A stretch of 32,000 bases of DNA, from positions 180,001 through 212,000 of the forward strand of contig NC_014972.1 in assembly GCF_000186885.1 (NCBI RefSeq). Direction: 5' to 3'. Made by a program: the position numbers and the translations under genes. This document shows, piece after piece, positions 5,460 to 30,457 of this stretch. The notes below the pieces were generated by a model. The model was not told the origin of the DNA, searched no databases, and worked only from the letters and a program-made list of their open reading frames with translations. Origin of the DNA: Desulfobulbus propionicus DSM 2032. GTDB taxonomy: Bacteria; Desulfobacterota; Desulfobulbia; Desulfobulbales; Desulfobulbaceae. Position 1 is the stretch's first letter, and every line of letters begins with the position of its first letter.

Positions 5460-6260
5460 CTACACCAATGCGTCGCCGCTGAACGGGTTCTTGGTGGGCA
5501 GATAGGGCAGCCCGCCATAGTTGACGATGTTGTTGAATTTGCCCCCGCAGTCATTCATGTCGTGGCGGCAGCCCGGCCACAGGGTCACCTCTGTCCCGGC
5601 CACCAGGCCGCCGATGGCATCGACCATGGTGATCGTCGCCCCCTCGTGGCCGTTGATCATCCGCAGTTCGGTCCCGGCCTGCAGCATGCCGCCGAGAAAA
5701 TACCCCGAGGCGAACGAGGTCAGCCCGTCGACGGTGAGCCTGCCGTCAATCACCTCCATCACGGTGCCGACCACCTTGCGGGCGTCGGCATTGATCCCGC
5801 ACGCGGCCGAGTAGAGCACATGCGGACACCCCACCTGGTACACCCGCCGCAATCCGGCCCGCTTGAACAGGGTGAAGGCCGAGTCGCTGGAAAGGGTGGC
5901 CACGGACCCGGCCCACTTGCAGCCGGTGATCCGGCCCTTCCAGAACAGCTGTTTCTCGCTGTCGCCGTGGTGCAGCCGGAAAATGGTCACGATCACCGTG
6001 CCGGCCAGCCAGCCGTCACGGAACAACAGGGCCACATCGTTGGCCGCGTTGATTTCGATGTCCATGGTGCTCCGCCGGGCATCGCCGCCCTTGGAGAACC
6101 CGCCGCGCTTGATGTAGACGGGCTGGTATTTCTCCTCAGCCAAACTCCCCACCTCATGGTCCGCGCTGGTGAACAGCCATTGCTGGGCGCCCACCGAGAA
6201 GCGGTACAACTCCAGCGGCTGGCCGGAAGAGTCGGATTCTTCATAGGTCGCGTAGCTCAT
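5460..6260 (-). CDS. Tail-tip protein, gpL-like (DUF2163 / BR0599-type)
   Basis: 266 aa from MSYATYEES (ATGA-coupled). The C-terminal WPGCRHDMNDCGGKFNNIVNYGGLPYLPTKNPF matches the Phage_BR0599 cysteine motif as I recall it. Confidence 0.75.
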   Translation of the reverse strand: MSYATYEESDSSGQPLELYRFSVGAQQWLFTSADHEVGSLAEEKYQPVYIKRGGFSKGGDARRSTMDIEINAANDVALLFRDGWLAGTVIVTIFRLHHGDSEKQLFWKGRITGCKWAGSVATLSSDSAFTLFKRAGLRRVYQVGCPHVLYSAACGINADARKVVGTVMEVIDGRLTVDGLTSFASGYFLGGMLQAGTELRMINGHEGATITMVDAIGGLVAGTEVTLWPGCRHDMNDCGGKFNNIVNYGGLPYLPTKNPFSGDALV

Positions 6261-18973: not shown

Positions 18974-19212
18974 AACCGTCGCCCCGCCTTGGCATAGATT
19001 CTGGTTGGGGTGTCGGCGGATCCTTGCAGCAGGTCACGCTCGCTGATCAGTTCCCGCAGGTAGCTGCGCAAGGTATTCAGATCGACCCGTTGACTCTCCG
19101 AGGCAGTTCCGGATCCGCTGCGGCCGTACTTCTGGCTCTCGAGCGTCCGGTGGATCGACTGGCGCGCCAGGGCGATCTCCGTGGTGTATTCTTCAACCGT
19201 GTCGAAATACAT
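18970..19212 (-). CDS. gpW-like head-tail joining protein
   Basis: 80 aa. Lies between the terminase and portal, as in lambda (A-W-B). Confidence 0.5.
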   Translation of the reverse strand: MYFDTVEEYTTEIALARQSIHRTLESQKYGRSGSGTASESQRVDLNTLRSYLRELISERDLLQGSADTPTRIYAKAGRRF

Positions 19213-21135
19213 CTACCAGCGCCTCCTTTTTGAAGCGGGTTGTACGGGCTGCACCTCATGCTCTTCCAGTTCGGGCTTCCAGTCGCGGATACCCATGATG
19301 TCGATCGCCGCCATGCCGTAGACCGAGATGTCCCAGTCGTGATTGTCCTTGCCGTCCGGGCAGATCCAGTAGCCCCGGTCGTCCTGGTACTCGGCGCACA
19401 TCTGGGCCGCGTAGTCCTTGCCGATCTCCGCATGCAAACGCATTGCGCCCGGGTCGCCCGGCTCCACCGCCAGGGTGGTGGCCAGGTCGTTTTTGTAGTG
19501 GGTGACGTTCAGGGTGTAGAGGTTGAGACCACCGGCAATGGGTATCTTCTTGCCGGAGCGTGACGGCAGGTACTCAAGGCGGGTGATGCTCCAGGGCAGA
19601 CTTTGGGTCCTGCGGCCTTTGATCGGGGAAAAAATTGGGTGTTTTTTGCAAAAGAGATAGACTTCGCGGGTCCGGCTGTGCTTGGGATGGTAGGGGTCGG
19701 TGCCACCACCGGAATCGATCCAGGCGGCGGCAATTCGGTATACGTTGCCATCGGCGTCCTTCCAGTCCTTTTCGGCCAGGTCCACCAGGTTGCCGAATTC
19801 GCGCACCATGCCGCGATCGATCACGCTGATGCTCATGTCCTCGCCCCAACCGCAGGCCCAGACCTGATAGCGGAAGCCATACTTCTGGGTGTCGACCAGG
19901 AGCAGCAGGCAGGAGGTCTCCCCGGGGACTGCGCGCCGGGGCAGGCTCTCATCCTTCAACCTGAGGATGTACTCTTCGTCGCGGTCCTTGATTTCGGCCT
20001 GGTAGTCGTTAGCCTCGACACCATTGGCCCAGGCGATTTTATCGGTGAGCTTGCCTGCCAGGTTCTTCAGCCAGGCCACGCCGATCTCCCTGAGCGTGAC
20101 GTCAAGGCAGTCCCAGGCGCGGTGGATGAAACCAACCCGCTCGGGCCGTGGCAATTCGCCGCCCTTGATCGCCACCCAGGCGCCGCCGCGAATGGCGTGG
20201 ATGCGTCCCTGCTCATCCATCTCGGCGCCGCAGAGATGGCAGGCGAGGATGACGCCGTCAGATTCGATCTGTTCAATGGTCGATTTGTCGTCGATCCCTA
20301 GATGTTCGCCTTCCGGTCGGATCAGCTCGCTGCAGTGGGGACAGCGCAGCCGGTATTCCCAGATCTGGTGGCAGGCCGCGACACCTTTGCGAATGAAGCG
20401 GCCGGCAGGGGTGGAGCAGAAAAACATCTTGGAACGGCCGCGGAAAGTACGGGCACGTTTACGGATAAGGGTGATGGGATCGGACTCACTGCCGGCCTGC
20501 TCCGGGTATTTGTCGACCTCGTCGCCGAAACAGCACTGGGCCGACCAGGTGGCCATGGCCTGGGGGCTGCCGGACCAGGAGGGCCGAATAACCTTGCCGT
20601 TGACCAGACGGATGCGGGTGATGGCGGTATCATCCTTGCGCGGGCTGAGGTAGCCGCGCAGATGCGGCGAGCCTTCGAGCATCGGCCGCAGTTTTTGATC
20701 GACGATGTTTTTTGCCGTCTCCTCGGAGGGCATCAGATAAAAGATGTCGCCGGCAAGCTGCTCGATCGACCAGGCCAGGCAGTTGGTGAGGGTGATGGTC
20801 TTGCCGGATTGATCCACCCCGCAGTACCAGATCTCGCGTACCCACTGGTGCCCAAAGATGATCAGGATTTTAGCGGTGTGGGGGGCGTGTTCGCGCCGCC
20901 AAGGACCGGGATGGGCGCCATCGGTGACAACACGGTACCGCTCGGCGAACTCCAGAGGACTAATACGCGGGGGTGAGGCGACGAACCGGCGCAGGTGCTT
21001 CGGAAAGGTGATGACCGGGCAACGATCAGAGGTGACGCTACGGCCGGAAAGCCGACGACGGACACTGGCAGGCGCACAGGGGTACAGCCTGAACACCGGG
21101 GCGGCGAACGCCAGTTGTCGGGCTGTCTCGGGCAT
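19213..21135 (-). CDS. terL: Terminase large subunit, GpA family
   Basis: 640 aa. Walker-A-like GVDQSGKT, a C4 zinc ribbon (CPHCSELI...CHLCGAEM) and overall GpA-like layout. No SD upstream of the ATG. Confidence 0.9.
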   Translation of the reverse strand: MPETARQLAFAAPVFRLYPCAPASVRRRLSGRSVTSDRCPVITFPKHLRRFVASPPRISPLEFAERYRVVTDGAHPGPWRREHAPHTAKILIIFGHQWVREIWYCGVDQSGKTITLTNCLAWSIEQLAGDIFYLMPSEETAKNIVDQKLRPMLEGSPHLRGYLSPRKDDTAITRIRLVNGKVIRPSWSGSPQAMATWSAQCCFGDEVDKYPEQAGSESDPITLIRKRARTFRGRSKMFFCSTPAGRFIRKGVAACHQIWEYRLRCPHCSELIRPEGEHLGIDDKSTIEQIESDGVILACHLCGAEMDEQGRIHAIRGGAWVAIKGGELPRPERVGFIHRAWDCLDVTLREIGVAWLKNLAGKLTDKIAWANGVEANDYQAEIKDRDEEYILRLKDESLPRRAVPGETSCLLLLVDTQKYGFRYQVWACGWGEDMSISVIDRGMVREFGNLVDLAEKDWKDADGNVYRIAAAWIDSGGGTDPYHPKHSRTREVYLFCKKHPIFSPIKGRRTQSLPWSITRLEYLPSRSGKKIPIAGGLNLYTLNVTHYKNDLATTLAVEPGDPGAMRLHAEIGKDYAAQMCAEYQDDRGYWICPDGKDNHDWDISVYGMAAIDIMGIRDWKPELEEHEVQPVQPASKRRRW

Positions 21136-21156
21136 GTTTCACCGTGAGAGAGGGCG

Positions 21157-21194
21157 CCGCCGGAAGGGTTGGAGCAGAAGGCCTTCCGGCGGCC
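21157..21194. repeat. Perfect 12-bp inverted repeat (GCCGCCGGAAGG / CCTTCCGGCGGC) with a 14-nt spacer, 22 bp upstream of the terL ATG
   Basis: Arms read directly at 21157-21168 and 21183-21194. No T-tract on either side. Confidence 0.85.
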
Positions 21195-21256
21195 AAGGAG
21201 CGACGCGCAAACCAGTGGTTCACGCGCCTATCCTACACGGTGTTTTTGGCAGTTTT

Positions 21257-21326
21257 GCAAATGTCGGCAAATGTCGGCAAATGTCGGCAGATGTCGGAAT
21301 ATTTCCGCAAATGTCGGCAAATGTTT
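21257..21326. repeat. Seven tandem 10-bp units (consensus GCAAATGTCG), helically phased; candidate cos/pac recognition (terS-binding) or iteron array
   Basis: GCAAATGTCG x3, GCAGATGTCG, GAATATTTCC (degenerate), GCAAATGTCG, GCAAATGTTT. Lies between the Bro-N gene stop (21331) and terL. Confidence 0.85.
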
Positions 21327-21330
21327 GGAT

Positions 21331-22089
21331 TTATCGGTTGACGTCCATTGAAACGTCCATAATCCAGTATACTCCGCCGATCTTCCGCAAGGTGTAGCCC
21401 AGGTTGCGCAGCTCGGCGCCCAGCTGTCGCGGTTGTTTTTTTTCTCCATGGCCAACAAGATCGGCCAGCCAGCGGTTGATGGCCTCGACCGCCCGCGACA
21501 GCCGCACCCGCTCGCCGGGTGCGGCGGCAAGGCACTGCTGGCAGAAGTCGCGCACCAGCGTGTCGGCCAGGGACGAGGCGGGGTGCTCAAGCTCGGCAAT
21601 CATATCGGCGAGATCGATCCCGGTCACGCGCTGCAGCACTCGCAGCGAGGTGGAGGTCGGCCGCAACACCACCTTGGTCAGGTCAAGCTGATAGCGAATA
21701 TCAAGCCCGCCGGGAGAGACCGGGCCGCGATGGTAAAAGATGTCGGTCTTGCGGCCGCCGTCGTCCTGGCTGTAGCTGCCGGTCTTGCGGATGGAGGGGA
21801 GGACCTCTTCGTAGATCCAGGCCTCAAACTTTTCCGCAGCCGGGAGCTTTGAGTGAGCGACCAGGCGGTAGAGGTTCGGCTCGTTGATGATACGAATTTC
21901 CTGGATACCTCCAGCTGTTCGAAGGGGGTAGTGTTTCACGACCCCCTTGCAATGTCTTGAAATCGCATCTTTTGTGTTGGCATATCCCAACAATTCGGCC
22001 ACGTCCTTGGCTACAAACCAGGGGGCATTATCGATGGTCAGGGTCCGGACCATTGAATCGTTGAAACAGAAGGGGGTAATTTCAGGCAT
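21331..22089 (-). CDS. Bro-N domain protein (antirepressor-like), copy 1
   Basis: 252 aa from MPEITPFCFNDSMVRTLTIDNAPWFVAKDVAELLGYANTKDA (Bro-N motif). The C-terminus (LGAELRNLGYTLRKIGGVYWI) looks like a winged helix. Paralog of 28238..29029. Confidence 0.75.
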   Translation of the reverse strand: MPEITPFCFNDSMVRTLTIDNAPWFVAKDVAELLGYANTKDAISRHCKGVVKHYPLRTAGGIQEIRIINEPNLYRLVAHSKLPAAEKFEAWIYEEVLPSIRKTGSYSQDDGGRKTDIFYHRGPVSPGGLDIRYQLDLTKVVLRPTSTSLRVLQRVTGIDLADMIAELEHPASSLADTLVRDFCQQCLAAAPGERVRLSRAVEAINRWLADLVGHGEKKQPRQLGAELRNLGYTLRKIGGVYWIMDVSMDVNR

Positions 22090-22399
22090 GGTGGTCCTCC
22101 AACTGGGCAATGACCATAGCCAGGGAGCGGGCAATGACGCCACGAGGGCCGACCATGTCGGAGGTTTCCTTGAGATGGGTGCAAAGATAATCGAGCGTGG
22201 CCAGAGCGCCGTGCGCGGCGATGCCGGTGCGTAGCTCGGCATTTAATCGCTTTCGGGCTGCGGGCAACTGCTCCCTGGCCTCGGCAACCAGGTGGCGCAG
22301 CAGCGGGTTGGGGTGGCGGCGGGAGTCGTGTTCAGGAAAGGACGGCGGGGCGGGAATGGCGGCGGGTCTGCGCCCGCCCTTGATCAGGGTGAGATGCAT
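22082..22399 (-). CDS. Conserved small protein (MHLTL..GGR family), copy 1
   Basis: 105 aa from the ATG at 22399 (GGAG upstream). Shares MHLTL.KGGR, DSRRHP.P, LVA.AREQLP, LD.LC.HL and IAQLEDHHA with 27891..28238. Overlaps the next gene by 8 nt. Confidence 0.6.
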   Translation of the reverse strand: MHLTLIKGGRRPAAIPAPPSFPEHDSRRHPNPLLRHLVAEAREQLPAARKRLNAELRTGIAAHGALATLDYLCTHLKETSDMVGPRGVIARSLAMVIAQLEDHHA

Positions 22400-22704
22400 G
22401 GTGGTGCTCCGTGAGATGAGGTTGACCACCCCTGCGCTGCTAAACGCAAAAAGGGCGGCGATATGCGGGTTAGCAGACCGGCCTCACGGAACCGGCAGGG
22501 GTTCCCCCCTCCCGCACACCACCACCCAAGCAAGAGCAATGCTGTGCTGTGGACGCAAAAAAACCGCCAAAATGAAACCTGACGTTACTAAAAGTAAAGT
22601 CAAGTGCAAGGCGGGGCATCCGCCGCGAGGTTCGGGCTGCTAAACCCGGCCACGGATTTTGCCGTGACAGCTTGAGCATTGCACACCCCACCAAACTCTG
22701 TCAA
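22400..22704 (-). promoter_or_regulatory. Structured leader, copy 1 (promoter-like element, hairpins with 8-nt loop UUUAGCAG, GGCGG/CCGCC alternative pairing, U7 terminator-like element)
   Basis: Minus strand: TTGACA (22704-22699)-N18-AATGCT; CGGG-UUUAGCAG-CCCG (22633-22648); GGCGG-N5-CCGCC (22610-22624); GGCGG-U7 (22557-22568); CUGCUAAC (22469-22476); hairpin with loop UUUAGCAG (22429-22455). Confidence 0.55.
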
Positions 22705-22712
22705 TCTTTTTC

Positions 22713-22928
22713 TCAACATGGTTGCCTCCATAATCGTTCGTGTTCATGGTCGCCATCCCGCCGAAGGCAAGAATGGCCTGCATGAACCCGGATAGACGGG
22801 GAGTTCATATGTGTAGAGTTTATCACGGCCAAAACGGGATTTTCCTCGAAAAAACAGCCAATAGTCAGCGTGATAGGATCGAGGGGCAGAGGATACGGTT
22901 TCATGCTATCCAGGGTCGTCTCTGTCAT
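22713..22928 (-). CDS. Hypothetical 71-aa ORF (weak call)
   Basis: ATG start with a weak RBS in an AT-rich island. An antisense 64-aa ORF is equally open. Confidence 0.2.
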   Translation of the reverse strand: MTETTLDSMKPYPLPLDPITLTIGCFFEENPVLAVINSTHMNSPSIRVHAGHSCLRRDGDHEHERLWRQPC

Positions 22929-23120
22929 CGTTGATCCCCATGAAACGATTTTTCAACATTTTATGTTGGTCTGTTTTCGCATCACTTCCCCAAAACAATT
23001 GACACCCACCCCATCCTGTGGGCACAATGAAACGATATTTACAGGAAAAATATGGGCACAATAGGGAGATGAAGGTGTGGTTTGACCTCTGTGCATTGCC
23101 TTGATAACAAGGAGTATATC
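22929..23120 (+). promoter_or_regulatory. Intergenic control region with paired decamers around a promoter-like element
   Basis: TTGACA (22999-23004)-N18-CACAAT. TGGGCACAAT at 23019-23028 and 23053-23062. ATGAAACGAT at 22940-22949 and 23027-23036. Confidence 0.35.
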
Positions 23121-23288
23121 ATGAACAATGGAAACGGATTTACCACCCAGGACGCAGGAACTGATTCCTCAAGGAGTTCGACACCACAAACCATAGATGT
23201 TCCGTCAGTCAATCCCGGGACAAACTCCACCCCTCAGAATGCAGGCGATACAGGAGGGGCACCACCCCCTCCTGTGGATGACGACTGA
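23121..23288 (+). CDS. 55-aa acidic, low-complexity (S/T/P/N/G/D-rich) protein
   Basis: Strong AAGGAG RBS 7 nt before the ATG. MNNGNGFTTQDAGTDSSRSSTPQTIDVPSVNPGTNSTPQNAGDTGGAPPPPVDDD. Convergent with the membrane-protein gene. Confidence 0.45.
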   Translation: MNNGNGFTTQDAGTDSSRSSTPQTIDVPSVNPGTNSTPQNAGDTGGAPPPPVDDD

Positions 23289-23298
23289 GTTGTGGCAA

Positions 23299-23946
23299 CT
23301 ATCTTTTCTTTTTAAAACGGATCATCACTCTTGAAATTTCGCTGGCAGGCACATAGGTCAACCTATCTCCCCAATCGGCATCGCGCACTGTTGTCATTTC
23401 TTTTGTCGTCCCATCGGTTTTTCTGATGGATGTTACATACAAAGCTATGTTGCCATCGTTATCTGTATAATATTTCGGAAAGGCGGCATCCCCGAACGAT
23501 TGAACATTATTGCATATCAGAGCGGATCCGTCCTTCAACAGCACCTTGACCTGCGTTGGCCCCGCGTGCGTACATTGAGTGATTCCAGTCCATACATTTG
23601 GTATACCGTCTTCATTGAGCACACCTGCATTTTGGAAAATGGTATTTGTCAACGGCTTACCGACTTTTCTCCACAAACAAGAAATGACGACCACGGAAAC
23701 AACTGCAATAATTGCCGGTATCAAAAAATACGAAAAAAAGGGTTTCACAAGATCAAAGGCGACATACCCGAAGAGACCGAACACTATGATTCCGTAGAGC
23801 AGTTCGTCTTTTCGCTCCTTGTCCCGCAATCCGGATCTCGCTATGGAATGACCGATATAACCGGTTGCGATCACAATTTGAATATACTCGGGCAGGTTTA
23901 GTAAATTTTCAATGTCGTTCATAATCCACTCCAGATACCCAGTCAT
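23299..23946 (-). CDS. Membrane protein: three N-terminal TM segments plus a C-terminal soluble domain of about 110 aa. Accessory (moron-like) gene.
   Basis: 215 aa, markedly AT-rich versus the phage core. TM candidates are YIQIVIATGYIGHSIA, LLYGIIVFGLFGYVAFDLV and FLIPAIIAVVSVVVISCLW. Confidence 0.65.
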   Translation of the reverse strand: MTGYLEWIMNDIENLLNLPEYIQIVIATGYIGHSIARSGLRDKERKDELLYGIIVFGLFGYVAFDLVKPFFSYFLIPAIIAVVSVVVISCLWRKVGKPLTNTIFQNAGVLNEDGIPNVWTGITQCTHAGPTQVKVLLKDGSALICNNVQSFGDAAFPKYYTDNDGNIALYVTSIRKTDGTTKEMTTVRDADWGDRLTYVPASEISRVMIRFKKKR

Positions 23947-23982
23947 TTTTTTCAGTTAGGATGCCCATCTCTCCACGCTACG

Positions 23983-24105
23983 ATGGAAAGCACCACTGAA
24001 CCATCATACACAAGGAGAAGAGCAATGGGAAAAGAGGAACTCTAACTGCTGGACAAGATTCTCGGTATGTACTCACGGCTGCTCCAACCACTCGGGAACA
24101 TAAGC
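23983..24105 (+). pseudogene. Truncated copy of the 5' part of plus-strand ORF 30458..30820 (in-frame TAA after MGKEEL)
   Basis: ATGGGAAAAGAGGAACTCTAACTGCTGGACAAGATTCTCGGTATGTACTCACGGCTG aligns with 30510-30566. Most differences fall on third codon positions of the plus-strand frame. Confidence 0.4.
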
Positions 24106-24174
24106 GACCTTTAACCGCACAGCCGCCTTGCTGGTGAAACCAATGGGCAGGAGGATGAAACCGTCCTTGGTCAT
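24073..24174 (-). CDS. Possible 33-aa ORF, ATGA-coupled to the HTH gene
   Basis: MTKDGFILLPIGFTSKAAVRLKVAYVPEWLEQP. The tail resembles the C-terminus (GGFVPDWMKP) of ORF 30557..31039. Confidence 0.25.
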   Translation of the reverse strand: MTKDGFILLPIGFTSKAAVRLKVAYVPEWLEQP

Positions 24175-24401
24175 CTGCCCTCAAGATTTACCACCGACGT
24201 ATGAGCGCCTGCATACAATCGTCGTTGCCAGCTAGCCAGAGCCTCCTTGTCGGCGCAGATACGGGCCCCAGGCCGCTCCTGGTACACCGGCATATCGCTA
24301 TGGTCTTCCATCCAACCCCGCACGGTTCGTTCGGAGACGCGCAAAAACGCGGCTACTTCCTTCATCCCGATCAACACCGCCTCATTCTCGCTCATCGCCA
24401 T
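24171..24401 (-). CDS. AlpA/excisionase-type (HTH_17-like) DNA-binding protein
   Basis: About 76 aa from MAMSENEAVLIGMKEVAAFLRVSERTVRGWMEDHSDMPVY (HTH). GAGGAGGA RBS inside the end of the upstream ORF. Confidence 0.6.
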   Translation of the reverse strand: MAMSENEAVLIGMKEVAAFLRVSERTVRGWMEDHSDMPVYQERPGARICADKEALASWQRRLYAGAHTSVVNLEGR

Positions 24402-24975
24402 CCTCCTCTGTCTGTTCGAACTCACCGGCATCGATGCGCATGCCGGACAATTCACCGTAGGCCCGGTTGATCACCAATTCCAAAATCTTGTCCGCCACCA
24501 ACGGTCCCTGGTGGTAGTCCCCACCGGCCTCGAGGACAATCTCGGTGGCCGCAATGCGGGTAAAATGCTCAAGATTGCCGCGGAGCATGTTGTATCCGGC
24601 AAGCAGCTGCGCCCAGTGGTCCTCGATTCGCATCCATCCACGATCTTCCGCCCTGGCCTTGATGGCAAGGCGGTCGACCTCGAGTTCCAGCTTGCGCAAC
24701 TCAAGCCGGTCTTTTTCCTGTTTCCTGTCGACCAGGTCAAGATCGACCACGGGTGCTTCCCCCATGGCCTTCAGCAAATATTCGGCCACCGATGCCCGCG
24801 AAACGCTCTTGTCGGGAAAGACGAGATACTTGCCGGCAACGCCGTCGTCGTAGAACTTGCGCTGCGACAGGGCCACGCCCCTGCCCCTGAGCTGTTCCCC
24901 TACCCAGCGCCAGGCGGCTGATCGGTTTTTGAACCTTTCCCGCGGTTGACCGGCCACAGTATCATCAATGGCCAT
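24382..24975 (-). CDS. Hypothetical protein with a central coiled coil (architecture loosely Nu1/small-terminase-like, unproven)
   Basis: 197 aa. DRKQEKDRLELRKLELEVDRLAIKARAEDRG is followed by a helical region and an acidic tail. No confident family match from memory. Confidence 0.5.
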   Translation of the reverse strand: MAIDDTVAGQPRERFKNRSAAWRWVGEQLRGRGVALSQRKFYDDGVAGKYLVFPDKSVSRASVAEYLLKAMGEAPVVDLDLVDRKQEKDRLELRKLELEVDRLAIKARAEDRGWMRIEDHWAQLLAGYNMLRGNLEHFTRIAATEIVLEAGGDYHQGPLVADKILELVINRAYGELSGMRIDAGEFEQTEEDGDERE

Positions 24976-25083
24976 GATCAGCGGTTATCCCGGACAGTTC
25001 TGGTTGCTTTTTGCAGGGCTCTTGCCCGGGTCTTGATTCCTGCCATATAATCCTGGCCAAGGTCGATCGTGCCCAGCCGTCCT

Positions 25084-25302
25084 TTACGCGTCGCCGACAA
25101 TGAAATCTGGATTGGTTGCCTTGATTGCAACCGTACAACATTTTTCCCCATCGATTTGTCTCCTTGTCTTCCAGGCTAGTTCCGTTTCAACCAATCGCTT
25201 TTCACATTCGGGACAAAGGCTGCCATCACCCTCATGGTCAACGATTCCAACAGTCGATAATCGTCCACACCCGGCACAGAGAATTTGTATGGTTCCTTTC
25301 AT
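25084..25302 (-). CDS. Small zinc-ribbon protein
   Basis: 72 aa, CAGCG...CPEC (CxxC-N19-CxxC). ATGA-coupled. Confidence 0.5.
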   Translation of the reverse strand: MKGTIQILCAGCGRLSTVGIVDHEGDGSLCPECEKRLVETELAWKTRRQIDGEKCCTVAIKATNPDFIVGDA

Positions 25303-26249
25303 GCTTCCCGGTGAACAATGCCCACCTGCCCCTGGAGAATCTTGAGGGCAAAGTCGGCCAGCTGATCGCGGATGAGGTCATGCTCAAAACTACTTTCCAT
25401 AACAAGCCCAGACGTTGGGACTTTTTCCCACCCTTCCAGATCCTCAAGGCGTTTCTCCAGTTCGGACACCCGATTGGCGAGGACCGTGCTTTCAGCAGTC
25501 AGCCGCTCAGCGTTTTGTAGGAGGGTGGTTTTTTCAGCCTCTAGGCCGGAAAACGTTTCCGTCACCATTTCTGGTACCAAGGCCACATCGCAGGCTCCGT
25601 CGAAACCGGAATCAAGGCTTTCGCCAATTTTCAGAAGAAATGACCAATATTGATCAGCCTCCTCGGCCCGTTTTTTCCTCAATTCTTGCTCTTCGATAAG
25701 CTGGCCGCTCAGCGTTTGAACCTCTGCAGCCAGTTCGTCGCATCGTCGCGCCAGTTCCTGCTTCTCTTCATCAACGGAACCCGCGGCTGGCAGGCAGTGC
25801 GGCAGCATCTTGCGCAAGGCCTTTTCCACCGCTTCCGGCCGGTTGGCCATGGCGCCAAAGAGGTTGCCACAACTGGTACAAACGAGATCGCCATGCAATC
25901 TGGTGAGGGTCATGTTTTCGCGTCCGCAGTTTTCGCATGTTCCGTCGTGTTTTTTTCCGCCCATTTCCAGCTCCCTTTTGCATTGTGCCGAGCCACGCTC
26001 GGTCTTCAAAATTTCCAGGTCCACCACCTGTAGCTCAGGTGGCCTTTCTTTCCCCAGGCATTGCAGACAACGGCTCAGCCGGACCGCCGCCAGGGGTAAT
26101 CCATCGCTGTTTTTCACCGCCTCATGGGCCTGTGCCAGTGCTTCCGCACAGGCCTGGGCGAAGCCGTGCTCCGTCATCCGCACCGGCAGCCCCCTTGTGA
26201 CCGGGCAGACGGCCCGCACTTCAATGTCGTTACGCACCGCCTCAGACAT
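25299..26249 (-). CDS. Zinc-ribbon plus coiled-coil protein, unknown function
   Basis: 316 aa. CENCG...CTSCG ribbon, then long heptad regions (EEKQELARRCDELAAEVQTLSGQLIEEQELRKKRAEE). Overlaps its neighbours by 8 and 4 nt. Confidence 0.55.
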   Translation of the reverse strand: MSEAVRNDIEVRAVCPVTRGLPVRMTEHGFAQACAEALAQAHEAVKNSDGLPLAAVRLSRCLQCLGKERPPELQVVDLEILKTERGSAQCKRELEMGGKKHDGTCENCGRENMTLTRLHGDLVCTSCGNLFGAMANRPEAVEKALRKMLPHCLPAAGSVDEEKQELARRCDELAAEVQTLSGQLIEEQELRKKRAEEADQYWSFLLKIGESLDSGFDGACDVALVPEMVTETFSGLEAEKTTLLQNAERLTAESTVLANRVSELEKRLEDLEGWEKVPTSGLVMESSFEHDLIRDQLADFALKILQGQVGIVHREA

Positions 26250-26454
26250 ACACCGGCCCCATGCCGACCTCGATAAACGCTTCGTTGAGCACCGCCATCG
26301 GTGAGCGGTGCGTCATGTGCCATCCGCCGCAGGCGGGACATTGATAGGGTTTGACCCGCACGCCCTTGCGGTTGAGTTCGATGGCCCGGCGGGTTGCCGC
26401 TTCCCGGCTGGCGTATCGTTTCTTGTCCCGGCAGGATTTCTTGATTTTCGTCAT
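26242..26454 (-). CDS. Small zinc-ribbon protein
   Basis: 70 aa. MTKIKKSCRDKKRYASREAATRRAIELNRKGVRVKPYQCPACGGWHMTHR. Starts 1 nt after the primase stop. The remainder of the 242-aa track ORF overlaps the primase and is rejected. Confidence 0.5.
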   Translation of the reverse strand: MTKIKKSCRDKKRYASREAATRRAIELNRKGVRVKPYQCPACGGWHMTHRSPMAVLNEAFIEVGMGPVYV

Positions 26455-26455
26455 G

Positions 26456-27898
26456 TTACGCCGCATCGGTGACCTCGCTTTGCAGTTGTATAAGCGCGTC
26501 AGCGCCAATGTATCGACCGCGCGGGAGCCGCTCCAGGAAATCGGCCACCGCACCGCCGCCGTACATGATCCGGGTGATTTGCCCACGCCGCATAAACGCA
26601 TCCAGGGTGTCCGCATCGCGCCGGAACCGAACCACCAGCTCACCATGGGGAGCGCGCCCGTACCACACCGCACCGGATTCAGTGCGCAGCAGTTCGGCAA
26701 AGGCCTCGATATCGTCCAGGGGCAGCGCTGAAGAGGGGAAGAAATCTCCACCCCCATTCCCCGGCGAGCGCTGCTCAGGGGACAAGGAGCGGTCCTGGCA
26801 AATGGGCGGGGGGCAGGCCACCACTGGCGGCAGGCCGGATTCCACCCACTGGCGCAGGTCGCCGCCATGGTCGCGGACAAAATCCCCCGGGTCCTTGCCG
26901 GCCGGCATCGGCCAGAACCGCGCTTGGCGGAAACTCCGGCGCCACCGCTTGACCGCGGCCGGGCCGGCACCCAGCTTGCCGTCCCTGGCCGGATCCGCGT
27001 CCAGGGCCACCAGGATCACGGGGCACTCTTCCAGCTCGGCCCGCAGGCCGGCATCAATCCCGCCGGCCACCGTGCCCAGGGCCACCACCAGCACCTCCCC
27101 GTGGGCAGCGGCCACGGCCATGGCATCCAGTTCGGCCTCGACGATCACCGCCCCGCGAATCGAACCGGAAGGCCGCAACACCATGGGCAGGTTGCCGCTG
27201 CCCTTGATCCACACATACTTGCGGTCGGACAAAAACTTCTCCCGCGCCGCCGGCGTCCTCCGGATCCGCAACCGATGCAGTTCGCCATGGCCATCAAAAA
27301 TCGGAATCACCAGCCCGCCGGGCACCCACAACCGTTCCTTGCCTTCCTCGAGCGGCAAGCCCAGCTCGCGTCGATCCACCCGCAGGTCATGCGCCAGCCA
27401 CCCCAGTTGGTATTGATCGACCTGGGCGGTGCCGATGCCACGGCTCTCCAGCCAGCGGATCTCCTCCGGTTCCCTGGTCAAGGCCTGCCGGGCCTTCTCC
27501 ACCAGCTTCCCGGCCCAGGCGCTCCATGCGCTCCCCGGATGGGCGGCGGTCAGCTCGGCAAGGCCGTCCGGCCTGCCACCAACCTGCGGTCGCACCGACC
27601 GGGGCCGTCGTTTCACCGGTTCGCCGTTGCGGCACGGGCCGTAGTTCGGGCAGGAAGGGGAACAATCCTTGCCCTCGGCATCGTGGGCCTCACGGCAGCT
27701 CATGCCATCCATCTCCCGCAGCCACTTGATGCGATCGCCCTTGAAGCCGCAGGCAAAGCAGCGAAATCCACCATCGGTAAACAGCACGAACTTGTCCGAG
27801 TCCTTTGAACCGCCGCACTTTGGGCACGGGCCGGTATGCCGGTTGCCGCTCTTGCGCAGGCCATGCTTGGCTGCTATTTCGTGATTGGCGCTATGCAT
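26456..27898 (-). CDS. DNA primase (zinc finger + TOPRIM) with an uncharacterised C-terminal domain
   Basis: About 480 aa from MHSANHEI. CPKCGG...CFACGFKGD zinc finger. TOPRIM-like VIVEAELDAM and VALDADPARDG. Confidence 0.8.
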   Translation of the reverse strand: MHSANHEIAAKHGLRKSGNRHTGPCPKCGGSKDSDKFVLFTDGGFRCFACGFKGDRIKWLREMDGMSCREAHDAEGKDCSPSCPNYGPCRNGEPVKRRPRSVRPQVGGRPDGLAELTAAHPGSAWSAWAGKLVEKARQALTREPEEIRWLESRGIGTAQVDQYQLGWLAHDLRVDRRELGLPLEEGKERLWVPGGLVIPIFDGHGELHRLRIRRTPAAREKFLSDRKYVWIKGSGNLPMVLRPSGSIRGAVIVEAELDAMAVAAAHGEVLVVALGTVAGGIDAGLRAELEECPVILVALDADPARDGKLGAGPAAVKRWRRSFRQARFWPMPAGKDPGDFVRDHGGDLRQWVESGLPPVVACPPPICQDRSLSPEQRSPGNGGGDFFPSSALPLDDIEAFAELLRTESGAVWYGRAPHGELVVRFRRDADTLDAFMRRGQITRIMYGGGAVADFLERLPRGRYIGADALIQLQSEVTDAA

Positions 27899-28238
27899 GA
27901 CGGTCCTCCAGCTGCGCGACAATCTTGGCGAGGCCATGGGCCATGTCGGTACGATGCCCGACCAGGTCTTTGAAGAGATTGAGGTGGTTGCAGAGGTGGT
28001 CCAGGATCGCCAGTATTCCGTCGACCGCGAGCAATCGGCATTCCCTGTCGCTGAGGCTTCGCTGCGCCTGAGGCAGTTGTTCCCTGGCCATGGCTACCAA
28101 CTGTTGCACCATAGGGCTGGGGTGGCGCCGCGAATCGGTATTTGCAGCAAAAGAGGCGAAAGAGTGGGCAACGGCGGTCTTTCTGCCGCCGGGTACGAGG
28201 GTGAGGTGCATATTCTGATGCAAGACCGACCGTTCCAT
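27891..28238 (-). CDS. Conserved small protein (MHLTL..GGR family), copy 2
   Basis: 115 aa from the TGATG-coupled ATG at 28238 (or 106 aa from MHLTLVPGGRK at 28211). Paralog of 22082..22399. Overlaps the primase start by 8 nt. Confidence 0.6.
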   Translation of the reverse strand: MERSVLHQNMHLTLVPGGRKTAVAHSFASFAANTDSRRHPSPMVQQLVAMAREQLPQAQRSLSDRECRLLAVDGILAILDHLCNHLNLFKDLVGHRTDMAHGLAKIVAQLEDRHA

Positions 28239-29029
28239 CACGCCACCTCCCGCACCGTCAGACCAAACACCTGGATACGGCCGCCGACCTTGGCCAGGGT
28301 GTAGCCGAGGTCGCGCAGCCTTGCGGCCAGCTCCCGGCTGGTGGCGATATTGACTTGGTTGAGGCCGTGGTCCAGGCACCATTGCCGGTACGCCCGGTGC
28401 ATTTCGGCCAGGGTCAGGCGGGGTGCCGGGTCCGGCACGGCCCGGGTGCAATCGTTGAGGAATCCGTCCAGCGAGGTTTCGACCTCCCGGCCGGGGGTGA
28501 TATGAAGGGCGTCCTCCACCAGATCGTCCATCTCGATGCCGGTCAGCCGTTGCAGCAGGGTGAGCGAGGTCCTGGTGGGCCGGGTGAGGATCTTGGTCAG
28601 GTCCAGGGTGTAGCGGATGTCGAGACCGGAGTCGGACACCGGGCCACGGTGGTGGAAGATGTCGGCGCGCTTGCCCTGGTTGGGCAGGGCGTAGCCGCCG
28701 GTCTTGCGGATCGAGGGGAGTACCTCGGCGGTGACCCATTTACGGAAGGGTTTGGCCTGGGGTTTGTTGGAACGGATGATCAGGGTGTAGAGGCCGGATT
28801 CGGAGATGATGAGCATGTTGCGCGTCTGACCTGCTCCGGCTATTTGCCGGACCAGCTTCTCATCATCATCGAGAAATTGGGTCGCGTCACTTGCGTCGGC
28901 ATACTCCAATACATCGCAAACATCCCTGGCGACAAACCAGGGATCGCCATCAATGGTCAGGGCACGAATTTCGTTGGACTCGAACTGGAAGGGGATTACT
29001 GCGGATGGACTACTGGCGGGACTGCTCAT
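28238..29029 (-). CDS. Bro-N domain protein (antirepressor-like), copy 2
   Basis: 263 aa from the ATG at 29029 (GGAGG RBS). IPFQFESNEIRALTIDGDPWFVARDVCDVLEY (Bro-N). Central IFHHRGPVSDSGLDIRYTLDLTK and C-terminal YRQWCLDHG...LRDLGYTLAKVGG are shared with copy 1. Confidence 0.75.
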   Translation of the reverse strand: MSSPASSPSAVIPFQFESNEIRALTIDGDPWFVARDVCDVLEYADASDATQFLDDDEKLVRQIAGAGQTRNMLIISESGLYTLIIRSNKPQAKPFRKWVTAEVLPSIRKTGGYALPNQGKRADIFHHRGPVSDSGLDIRYTLDLTKILTRPTRTSLTLLQRLTGIEMDDLVEDALHITPGREVETSLDGFLNDCTRAVPDPAPRLTLAEMHRAYRQWCLDHGLNQVNIATSRELAARLRDLGYTLAKVGGRIQVFGLTVREVA

Positions 29030-29320
29030 GGCGTTACCTCCGTACAAAAAGGATTTTGACGCCCATTTCCGCTGTCAAACGGAAAAAGGGCGAACACTGT
29101 GCGGGTTGACAGACCGGTGTACGGACCGGCAGGGGTTGCCCCCTCCCACACAGCGCCGCCCAAACAAGAGAGCTTCGCCATGGTGTGGACGCAAAAAAAC
29201 CGCCGAATATGAGACTGGTGGCGGTGCGTCCGCCGTACAATCAGGCTGTCAAACCCGAGCCGCTGGATTTTGCCAGCGACGCCGTTATAATAGCCTGAAA
29301 AGATTTTTTTTGTCAACGAT
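29030..29320 (-). promoter_or_regulatory. Structured leader, copy 2 (sigma70-like promoter, hairpins with 8-nt loop UUUGACAG, GGCGG/CCGCC alternative pairing, U7 terminator-like element)
   Basis: Minus strand: TTGACA (29316-29311)-N18-TATTAT (29292-29287); CGGG-UUUGACAG-CCUG (29242-29257); GGCGG-ACGCA-CCGCC (29220-29234); GGCGG-U7 (29193-29204); CUGUCAAC (29105-29112); hairpin CGCCC/UUUCCG-UUUGACAG-CGGAAA/GGGCG (29060-29092). Confidence 0.6.
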
Positions 29321-29332
29321 ACAAAATAAAGG

Positions 29333-29794
29333 ATGGTAATAATCATGGGATACAGGGAGCTTACCGAAGTGGAATTCGACAGGATCGGAAAAACGGTCAG
29401 GACTATAACTGAAGCAAAGAAGTGGTTTGTATCGTACTTGGTTGAAAACAGGATATGCTCAGAAGAAACGGCTAAAAATAGTGCCGATGAAATACCGTAT
29501 GATTTTGAGACTGAAATTGAAAATTTAAGATTTGAAATTGATGAAGAGAAGGAAAGTTTAAGAGAAGCAAAGGCTGATTTGGCAGAAGCAAAGAGGTTGT
29601 TGAAAAAATGCAAAACAAACAAGGATAAGGAGGACGCTGCTCTTGATGTAAAAGATGCAGAAGAGGATATTGAAGAAATAAAAAAGCAAATAAGTGCGAT
29701 AAAAAGCGATATAGCAAGTCTGAAAGCTGACAAAAAGTACTTCTTGATATCATTTACGAACAGACACATTTCATACATAGAAAGAAAAAAATGA
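29333..29794 (+). CDS. Charged coiled-coil protein, AT-rich accessory gene
   Basis: 153 aa (or 149 aa from the ATG at 29345). EIENLRFEIDEEKESLREAKADLAEAKRLLKK...EEDIEEIKKQISAIKSDIASLKADKK. Transcribed divergently from the leader-2 promoter. Confidence 0.55.
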   Translation: MVIIMGYRELTEVEFDRIGKTVRTITEAKKWFVSYLVENRICSEETAKNSADEIPYDFETEIENLRFEIDEEKESLREAKADLAEAKRLLKKCKTNKDKEDAALDVKDAEEDIEEIKKQISAIKSDIASLKADKKYFLISFTNRHISYIERKK

Positions 29795-29952
29795 CTAAAA
29801 ATTTCAGCGGTGTACTCGGTGATCCAGCTGGCGGTTTGCAAGCACTTTTTCTTGTTGATCCAGGCAACCGGTTGAATCTCCGACGCGATTGCGGTACCGT
29901 GGTGACGCCAATCAACCAACAGCGACCAACCATCACGCCGGAGGTGTACCGT

Positions 29953-30369
29953 ATGTCCATAAATCCACTGAAACTTCTTGAAGATTTGATCAACGAGCAT
30001 GGCAGCAGCTCAATCCTTAGAGAGCGGTTGCTTCTTGTTAAAGATGAACTTGGCAAGGTCGAAAAAGAACGTGCTGATTTGCAGCGACAACTCGCCGAGG
30101 CGATGGAAAAACTTCGCTATCTTCGCGAAGAAGTGAAGAAAAAAAGTGTTCCCGAGAACTTTACCGAATATCGCGGGGCACTGTTCAAACGAGACGTGTC
30201 GGGTCGGCACGCCCCACTTGCCCATTGCCCCGAGTGTAAGCGGCCACTTGTGAACACAGACCCGTGCGTGTTTCCGTATAATTGCACCACACCTGGATGC
30301 CGATACGAGGTAACCATCAAGGAAGATCTTGAGCTTATTGCGCAAAGGCTTGATCATATAGCCTCCTGA
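29953..30369 (+). CDS. Coiled-coil plus C-terminal 4-Cys zinc-ribbon protein, accessory gene
   Basis: 138 aa from MSINPLKLL (GGAGG 8 nt upstream). CPECKRP...CTTPGC. The frame is also open from an ATGA-coupled ATG at 29791, through a GC-richer 150-bp patch. Confidence 0.5.
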   Translation: MSINPLKLLEDLINEHGSSSILRERLLLVKDELGKVEKERADLQRQLAEAMEKLRYLREEVKKKSVPENFTEYRGALFKRDVSGRHAPLAHCPECKRPLVNTDPCVFPYNCTTPGCRYEVTIKEDLELIAQRLDHIAS

Positions 30370-30457
30370 GAAACTGGTTCTGTTGTCCGCACGGTCATCG
30401 CGAGTGGTTTTTGCATGGTTTTTCTCCGTTGATTCTCCCATGTGCCCGCAGTAGCAT

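Follow-up and report, generated by a model that had tools for sequence, protein, structure and literature searches.

The 32-kb stretch of DNA analysed here (contig NC_014972.1; "the window", to which all positions refer unless another contig is named) holds, with a probability of roughly 0.9, two complete antisense-RNA cassettes of the immI type that belong to the P1/P7 c4 family, both encoded on the minus strand. They are probably added members of the known C4 system, carried by a Desulfobulbus-like prophage, and the basic picture of that system would remain unchanged. The original prediction, based on the leaders of two operons in the window, had described three short elements (two hairpin loops and their complement) switched in concert between the leaders, and had held that no element of such a layout was described. 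The layout is that of the textbook P1/P7 immI locus, annotated in the P1 GenBank record and covered by Rfam families RF01695 and RF03163, and since both leaders fall in the known C4 family (RF01695), the claim of novelty is contradicted.

Identity of the two leaders

A scan of the whole window at Rfam gathering thresholds (45 bits for RF01695, 46.7 for RF03163 and 50 for isrK, RF01394) returned three matches, all within these two leaders. The C4 antisense RNA model RF01695 matched at 22450-22532(-) with 54.1 bits and at 29085-29166(-) with 45.7 bits, both passing, and RF03163 (c4-a1b1; "a1, b1 targets of C4 antisense RNA") matched copy 1 at 22629-22681 with 52.4 bits. The match of copy 2 to RF03163 was recovered by E-value reporting (36.8 bits, E = 1.5e-6) and lies under the threshold. 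Both leaders also resemble isrK (22557-22668, 45.3 bits; 29193-29279, 36.8 bits), yet are not members of that family by threshold. As positive controls, the immI loci of P1 and P7 were scanned too; they matched these three families in an identical order, with RF01695 scores of 68.8 and 69.6 bits, respectively, and isrK scores that are likewise sub-threshold (35.1 and 43.7 bits). The P1 GenBank record annotates a1, b1, a 77-nt c4 RNA, a2, b2 (before icd), icd, and ant1 overlapping icd. In a four-way alignment of P1, P7 and both window leaders, every window element falls on its P1/P7 counterpart. The parts of both cassettes, with the Shine-Dalgarno (SD) sequences and open reading frames (ORFs) that they precede, are listed below.

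Cassette 1
22699-22704, minus: putative -35 element TTGACA, read from the sequence; aligns with the P1/P7 -35 TTGACC of P1c4/P51b
22678-22683, minus: best -10 candidate, TGCAAT, with a 15-nt spacer
22629-22681, minus: c4-a1b1 motif (RF03163, 52.4 bits)
22649-22668, minus: hairpin 1, loop CAAAAUC
22633-22648, minus: hairpin 2, CGGGTTTAGCAGCCCG (RNA: CGGG-UUUAGCAG-CCCG), with a1 = UUAGCAG (22637-22643) in the 8-nt loop; exact complement of a'
22623-22630, minus: b1 CCUCGCGG, read from the sequence; pairs with b' CCGUGAGG over 8 bp including one G-U
22557-22624, minus: leader terminator region (fold, isrK-like match, three-arm layout)
22620-22624, minus: terminator arm 1, GGCGG
22610-22614, minus: terminator arm 2, CCGCC
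22564-22568, minus: terminator arm 3, GGCGG
22557-22563, minus: U7 tract of the terminator
22450-22532, minus: C4 antisense RNA (RF01695, 54.1 bits; fold; complementarities)
22483-22490, minus: b' UCCGUGAG, loop of the second inner C4 hairpin
22469-22476, minus: complement of the loops, CTGCTAAC (RNA: CUGCUAAC)
22470-22476, minus: a' CUGCUAA, in the single-stranded joint of C4
22448-22452, minus: U5 tract, adjoining the C4 outer stem
22433-22448, minus: a2 hairpin, within 22429-22455, TGCG-TTTAGCAG-CGCA (RNA: UGCG-UUUAGCAG-CGCA); a2 = 22437-22443
22408-22415, minus: b2 CUCACGGA, 8-nt exact complement of b'; overlaps the SD sequence GGAG (22407-22410)
22082-22399, minus: MHLTL1, 105-aa leader ORF and first ORF; ATG at 22397-22399
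21331-22089, minus: Bro-N protein 1 ('Ant1'), 252 aa; ATG at 22087-22089; PF02498 2e-23, phrog_130 'anti-repressor Ant' 6e-50

Cassette 2
29287-29316, minus: sigma-70-type promoter TTGACA-18-TATTAT, 11/12 consensus matches
29238-29293, minus: c4-a1b1-like hairpins (RF03163, 36.8 bits, sub-threshold)
29258-29280, minus: hairpin 1
29242-29257, minus: a1 hairpin, CGGGTTTGACAGCCTG (RNA: CGGG-UUUGACAG-CCUG); a1 = UUGACAG (29246-29252), complement of a'
29233-29239, minus: b1 UGUACGG, 7-nt exact complement of b'
29193-29234, minus: leader terminator region (isrK-like match, fold, three-arm layout)
29230-29234, minus: terminator arm 1, GGCGG
29220-29224, minus: terminator arm 2, CCGCC
29200-29204, minus: terminator arm 3, GGCGG
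29193-29199, minus: U7 tract of the terminator
29085-29166, minus: C4 antisense RNA (RF01695, 45.7 bits; fold z = -3.9)
29118-29125, minus: b' UCCGUACA, loop of the second inner C4 hairpin
29105-29112, minus: complement of the loops, CTGTCAAC (RNA: CUGUCAAC)
29106-29112, minus: a' CUGUCAA, complementary to a1 and a2
29083-29087, minus: U5 tract, adjoining the C4 outer stem
29066-29085, minus: a2 hairpin, within 29060-29092, TTTCCG-TTTGACAG-CGGAAA (RNA: UUUCCG-UUUGACAG-CGGAAA); a2 = 29072-29078
29039-29046, minus: b2 UGUACGGA, exact complement of b'; overlaps the SD sequence GGAGG (29037-29041); ATG at 29027-29029
28238-29029, minus: Bro-N protein 2 ('Ant2'), 263 aa; PF02498 1.4e-25, phrog_130 1.3e-51
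27891-28238, minus: MHLTL2, paralog of MHLTL1, flanked by the genes of Bro-N protein 2 and primase
26456-27937: DnaG-type primase gene, downstream of MHLTL2

Both copies adopt a three-stem C4 fold, in the minimum free energy and in the centroid structure, with a long outer stem around two hairpins, the first of them short and capped, and with a single-stranded joint ahead of the closure of the outer stem. Compared with shuffled sequences these folds have z = -3.3 (copy 1) and -3.9 (copy 2). The outer stem begins with GGG at 22527 and 29161, comparable to the GG(W) 5' end at which the Group 1 C4-like small RNAs of Acinetobacter baumannii AB5075 appear to be processed, a hint at 5' processing at the level of sequence. 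The position of b1 in cassette 1 agrees with that of b1 in P1, P7 and copy 2.

The minus-strand letters at all six ranges named in the original prediction agree with its description, and the stem changes that it reported around the loops are real (UGCG/CGCA versus UUUCCG/CGGAAA, and CGGG/CCCG versus CGGG/CCUG). The complementarity between loop and complement is exact, but it spans 7 nt (UUAGCAG/CUGCUAA and UUGACAG/CUGUCAA) and not 8, and what had been read as the swap of a central dinucleotide is in each allele a single substitution relative to the Rfam consensus UUGGCAG. Also, the internal complement exists, not as a passive site of the leader but as the a' segment of a separate, probably processed, antisense RNA of ~77-83 nt. 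A second switched set (b', b1, b2), present in both leaders, had been overlooked. In the four-way alignment, UUUAGCAG/CUGCUAA is the P7 allele of a1/a'/a2, carried by cassette 1, and UUUGACAG/CUGUCAA is the P1 allele, carried by cassette 2. The switch between the copies is, base for base, the dimorphism of P1 and P7, two phages whose heteroimmunity is ascribed to a small number of bases that differ in c4 and in the target sites, and has been credited to this dimorphism of the a site.

By raw count the 7-mers are not above chance in the window (TTAGCAG, 3 versus 1.5 expected; TTGACAG, 4 versus 3.2 expected). What stands out is how closely they cluster, with all three copies of TTAGCAG inside 207 nt and three of the four of TTGACAG inside 181 nt; the clusters occupy homologous positions in the two leaders, whose alignment has 74% column identity. 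TTGACAG, the target 7-mer of copy 2, recurs at 22698-22704 as the putative -35 element of cassette 1 plus a G; this occurrence precedes the likely transcript and is probably fortuitous, a product of the sigma-70 consensus.

All six pairing sites (a1, b1, a', b', a2, b2) are intact and cognate in each cassette, where a and b alike have exact complements of 7-8 nt. No complement of at least 7 nt to a' or b' joins the C4 of one cassette to the transcribed a or b sites of the other. Calculated element by element, the a'/a duplexes have energies of -8.5 and -8.4 kcal/mol in the cognate and -2.1 and -3.3 kcal/mol in the non-cognate combinations, and the b'/b2 duplexes of -14.9 and -12.3 kcal/mol versus -8.4 and -6.8 kcal/mol, a residual cross-pairing due to the anti-SD core (UCCGU/ACGGA) that the b elements share. 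Since a alleles and b elements both differ between the cassettes, each C4 should repress only its own operon, which would support the earlier proposal that two specificity variants inside one prophage allow two operons to be addressed separately.

Concerted variation across the family

The nearest related prophages lack C4, and covariation was therefore assessed family-wide in IMG/VR, where a degenerate pattern of the C4 core recovered 119 loci, 106 of which, as unique cassettes with full flanks, were tested. Eighteen a' alleles occur in this set, CTGTCAA (P1-type, 38) and CTGCTAA (P7-type, 29) being the commonest; the pair found in the window thus represents the two leading alleles of a family spread over many uncultivated phages and not an enterobacterial curiosity. 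An exact cognate 7-mer is present both upstream and downstream of C4 in 80 of the 106 cassettes and in 0 of 1802 non-cognate allele-cassette combinations, and most of the cassettes that fail differ at a terminal base only. The b' loop is far more variable than a', and finds a downstream match of at least 7 nt in 82/106 cassettes versus ~3% for non-cognate loops. The three sites a1, a' and a2 do change together, and this behaviour is characteristic of a known family. The check for concerted change that accompanied the original prediction was run in this family-wide form, and its view of the elements as specificity determinants is borne out by this variation and by the P1/P7 alleles.

The geometry of the sites is conserved as well. 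Measured from the end of the match to the C4 search pattern, a2 starts at a median of 21 nt and b2 at a median of 52 nt downstream; b2 has an SD-like core in 75/87 cassettes, followed in most by an ATG 6-10 nt later. An 8-nt loop with 4/4 flanking pairs presents a1 in 84/90 cassettes and a2 in 65/89, the latter with 30 distinct arm pairs. Presentation of a1 and a2 in hairpin loops is a family-wide feature that generalises the compensatory stem changes seen between the two leaders, and the covarying a2 hairpin falls outside both Rfam models (RF01695 and RF03163). Action at the RNA level, envisaged earlier as hairpin-loop sites pairing with the internal complement over ~7 bp, matches the a1/a'/a2 layout of C4.

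Several cassettes per phage or genome are not unique to this window. Four occur on IMG/VR contig L042, three on L073 (214-10237), two each on L090 (676-2868) and L038, and loci L020 and L046 are the two cassettes of one contig. Including the window pair, there are 13 co-resident pairs, none of which has both a' and b' in common; a' alone is common to two of the pairs and b' alone to one. On L042 (2351-5108) the four isrK+C4 cassettes stand in tandem, ~850 bp apart, each before a similar small ORF starting MATT...TQTQPE. On L090 a match to the type II hammerhead ribozyme (RF02276, 52.6 bits, threshold 37) lies at 5838-5904(-), ~3 kb from the two C4 cassettes.

Two further features of the RNAs were noted. 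In both window copies and in 21/106 IMG/VR cassettes, though not in P1/P7, the outer stem of C4 runs straight into a U5 tract; in this subgroup the 3' end of C4 might come from intrinsic termination, and expression of the cargo would then require read-through of two terminators. The loop of hairpin 1, CAAAAUC, is near-invariant (CAAAUUC in P1/P7) and pairs with nothing in C4; it could be a contact for Hfq or another protein, or a processing signal.

Mode of action and competing explanations

In P1/P7, c4 RNA is processed from the leader, by RNase P at its 5' end, into a stable RNA of ~77 nt and pairs with the mRNA of the ant operon around the ribosome-binding site, blocking antirepressor synthesis; a1/b1 have been proposed as competitors of a2/b2 for C4, in a decoy model that involves the a', b', a1b1 and a2b2 sites. 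In the prophage Gifsy-1, IsrK, a homologous short RNA, activates orf45-anrP translation in trans, and a processed ~80-nt RNA, STnc1160, arises from read-through. By homology with P1/P7, a detailed mechanism for the window cassettes can be proposed, and we regard it as likely. Each would read, in order, promoter, two hairpins with a1 in the second, b1, a U7 terminator, C4, the a2 hairpin, b2 over the SD sequence, and cargo. C4 (~80 nt) would be cut from the leader transcript, and its a' and b' would pair with a2 and b2 of the mRNA of the same operon, hiding the ribosome-binding site so that the first ORF stays untranslated and the downstream Bro-N gene is silent through translational coupling or polarity. 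In cassette 1 the block would fall on MHLTL1, presumably coupled to the overlapping Bro-N gene, and in cassette 2 directly on the Bro-N gene. The upstream a1/b1, released as a short terminated IsrK-like RNA, may act as a decoy or anti-antisense that titrates C4, and a burst of leader transcription could thus supply enough decoys to lift the block. The differing a and b alleles would keep the two circuits apart.

For annotation, two "orphan" structured leaders become named regulatory RNAs with predictable targets. The additions to the C4 system itself are modest: 2-4 cassettes per phage that do not share both keys, a2 in a covarying hairpin, and b1 fused to a possible anti-terminator.

Several points weigh against the assignment of both cassettes to a working C4 system. 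The C4 of copy 2 is barely over its Rfam threshold (45.7 versus 45) and its a1b1 lies below (36.8 versus 46.7); a consensus scan ahead of cassette 1 found neither a full sigma-70 site nor a convincing -10 element; and the shared anti-SD core predicts some b cross-talk between the cassettes. The cargo is not that of P1 either. Homology of the Bro-N proteins to P1 Ant1 was rejected, as P1 Ant1 is an unrelated KilAC protein (PF03374), and the "antirepressor" label consequently rests on the PHROG annotation of Bro-N; membership of MHLTL in the Icd family was likewise rejected, there being no match to NF033153, whereas the P1 Icd control matches it; and no repressor gene was identified within the window. 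Transcription, processing, repression and orthogonality in this host are what we infer, beside the family membership, complementarities and concerted variation that are seen. Finally, a set of direct and inverted DNA sites has, in formal terms, the same sequence signature as RNA complementarity, and a test of G-U wobble did not discriminate, the one-mismatch variants lying mostly at the ends of the 7-mers (1 G-U-compatible versus 14 other).

Within the same family, C4 could act mainly by transcription attenuation, with the b'/b1 pairing freeing CCGCC for the GGCGG-U7 arm and stopping transcription before C4 and cargo. This logic would be like that of the P4 CI RNA, with an intrinsic terminator, and it is compatible with a translational block. 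The three-arm layout on which it depends occurs in both window leaders and in P1/P7, with the 3' end of b1 overlapping by 2 nt arm 1 (GGCGG), which with CCGCC would form an anti-terminator hairpin (in P1, locus L175, 670-712), and by an exact-copy criterion in 30/70 (~43%) of the IMG/VR leaders, at a fixed 18-19 nt after a1; exact arm 1 is absent from the other 40/70. When b1 was forced to be unpaired in silico, the 3' arm of the terminator gained more than 0.1 in pairing probability in 29/63 leaders, compared with 1/63 when the a1 loop was blocked. In window copy 1 the value rose from 0.73 to 0.98, but in copy 2 the arm is already 0.95 paired without blocking, and these calculations are purely thermodynamic. 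A similar idea was raised by the authors of the IsrK work for STnc1160, and yet constitutive STnc1160 failed to prevent IsrK toxicity in Gifsy-1. The P1 mechanism is reportedly (Biere et al. 1992) translational repression of icd with secondary polarity, which also speaks against attenuation as the main action, and this alternative is considered rather unlikely. Slightly less doubtful, and put forward tentatively, is a two-level action in which C4 would mask the ribosome-binding site and, by pairing of b' with b1, also melt the 5' arm of a conserved anti-terminator and switch on its own leader terminator, as a trans-RNA attenuator with negative feedback, in two orthogonal insulated switches. 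If true, the two switches would each control one of the paralogous Bro-N/MHLTL modules, at the head of the primase operon in one case and just before the packaging genes in the other.

The remaining alternatives depart further from a functional C4 system. Decay of one or both cassettes into relics without any regulatory function would agree with the marginal scores of copy 2, with the poor -10 of copy 1 and with the absence of C4 from the closest related prophages; set against the intact cognate sites, the folds far better than shuffles, the intact downstream ORFs with high G+C at third codon positions (GC3), and the identical proteins in independent assemblies, it is improbable. Even less weight is given to loops that serve as sites for an RNA-binding protein (boxB/nut-like antitermination, an option raised originally, or Hfq) with an incidental complement. 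The upstream hairpins do match isrK, labelled Hfq-binding, below threshold, and the conserved loop CAAAAUC of hairpin 1 has no explained role. But a protein-only model does not predict a complement that covaries with both loops over 18 alleles (80/106 versus 0/1802), no N-like or Q-like gene was found beside either cassette, and Hfq could aid pairing without being the reader of specificity. The other original option, operator half-sites (two direct, one inverted) for two DNA-binding proteins such as Bro-N/MHLTL with no RNA role, draws on the formal equivalence and the undecided G-U test mentioned above, and on Bro-N being a DNA-binding domain encoded by both modules. We consider it the least probable of all. 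The sites lie in covarying RNA hairpin loops and in a structured RNA defined by covariance models, the second element (b2) overlaps the SD sequence on the sense strand, and the alleles are identical in P1/P7, where the literature holds that it is the pairing of these regions which determines the specificity of C4 and the heteroimmunity. Moreover, the same alleles recur beside unrelated cargo (Rha, AntA, KilA-N), so that a cargo-encoded binding protein cannot explain the sites.

Related systems, cargo and host

The C4 cassettes of the window share with P1/P7 immI (a1 b1 - c4 - a2 b2 - icd - ant1/2) the order of RNA parts, the three-stem C4, the leader terminator layout, and a specificity set by few bases in a'/b' with compensating changes in the targets; in cassette 1, b2 also covers the SD sequence of a short leader ORF overlapping the gene after it. 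They differ in that two cassettes occur in one prophage, probably of a Desulfobulbus-like and not an enteric host, in the cargo (Bro-N, not KilAC-domain Ant1/2, and a leader ORF that is not Icd), in the direct targeting of a Bro-N gene by cassette 2, in the U5 after the C4 outer stem, and in that no C1-type operator was recognised. The isrK - STnc1160 - orf45 - anrP locus of Gifsy-1 in Salmonella gives rise to a short RNA that ends at a terminator and, on read-through, to the transcript of a small ORF whose translation is coupled to that of an antirepressor-like gene, with a processed ~80-nt RNA between them. It resembles the window in that the a1b1 hairpins and terminator score as isrK-like, and in its location in the late part of a lambdoid prophage, cassette 1 likewise preceding a terminase gene. 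However, the window leaders score under the isrK threshold, and trans activation has been shown for IsrK, whereas the a1b1 RNAs of the window are known from sequence.

Phage P4 immunity (CI RNA, or seqB; the leader of the replication operon, which encodes alpha primase, contains seqA and seqC) also involves a processed leader RNA with complements on both sides, and the operon that it controls includes primase, as with cassette 2, a likeness drawn from descriptions of the P4 system. IsrK has been called a structural homolog of the P4 SeqA RNA by its authors. P4 immunity acts, in contrast, through premature transcription termination. The Group 1 C4-like small RNAs of A. baumannii AB5075 are similar in their many C4 homologs per genome, which differ mainly in a'/b'; there, co-option to bacterial targets has been proposed, whereas the window cassettes keep full cis targets and phage cargo.

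Both modules consist of the same three parts (C4 cassette, Bro-N, MHLTL) in different gene order. In the first, the 3' end of MHLTL1 overlaps the start of Bro-N protein 1 by 8 nt (ATGCCTGA), and genes for a lambda-gpA-type large terminase, portal and capsid follow downstream; in the second, the first ORF is the Bro-N gene itself, with no leader ORF before it. The Bro-N proteins are 41.5% identical to each other and the MHLTL proteins 50%; the MHLTL family has no match in Pfam, PHROG or NCBIfam. The exact 252-aa product of Bro-N protein 1 is called in Logan assemblies and the exact product of Bro-N protein 2 in a Logan assembly, and the ORFs downstream of both cassettes are intact, with high GC3. 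Among the largest ORFs just downstream of 79 IMG/VR cassettes, taken together with the two window genes, Bro-N is the commonest (22/81), followed by Rha, P22_AR_N, AntA and KilA-N; the window cassettes are typical of the family in their cargo.

The C-terminal ~80 aa of Bro-N protein 2 (28238-28490) match the C-termini of primase PHROGs (phrog_6088, 6e-6; phrog_1156, 3e-4), a hint at a domain common to primases and these 'antirepressor-type' Bro-N proteins, whose target may be replication and not a repressor. A homolog of MHLTL stands directly upstream of the primase in a Desulfobulbus metagenome-assembled genome (MAG) that has no C4 or Bro-N (L120, 8053-8277).

Megablast of 19000-30400 against GenBank phages gave no match, and a distant search with the copy 1 leader gave only ~72% matches, in three Bordetella phages. 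Among GTDB representatives, the nearest primase relatives are in Desulfobulbus MAGs (83-84% amino-acid identity), which are syntenic with the window from primase to terminase (TerL) at 79-82% nucleotide identity; this synteny argues for one prophage and not for a phage plus satellite. In these MAG relatives no C4 was detected at gathering or E <= 1 thresholds, and the cassettes with their Bro-N cargo are therefore regarded as exchangeable mosaic modules. Desulfobacterota strain NaphS2 carries an isrK-like + C4 cassette near a primase homolog. Identity between the two window copies is 80% within C4 and 71% across the cassette, and either copy is 76-81% identical to unrelated IMG/VR cassettes; being no closer to each other than to these, they lead to a conclusion of neither duplication nor independent capture.

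The genes that flank the cassettes (22713-24200 and 29333-30369) have a GC3 of 0.36-0.51, compared with 0.7-0.85 elsewhere. They have no similarity in the related Desulfobulbus prophages and look recently acquired; among them are the gene of a phrog_12870 protein (23299-23946) and a coiled-coil ORF divergent from the cassette 2 promoter.

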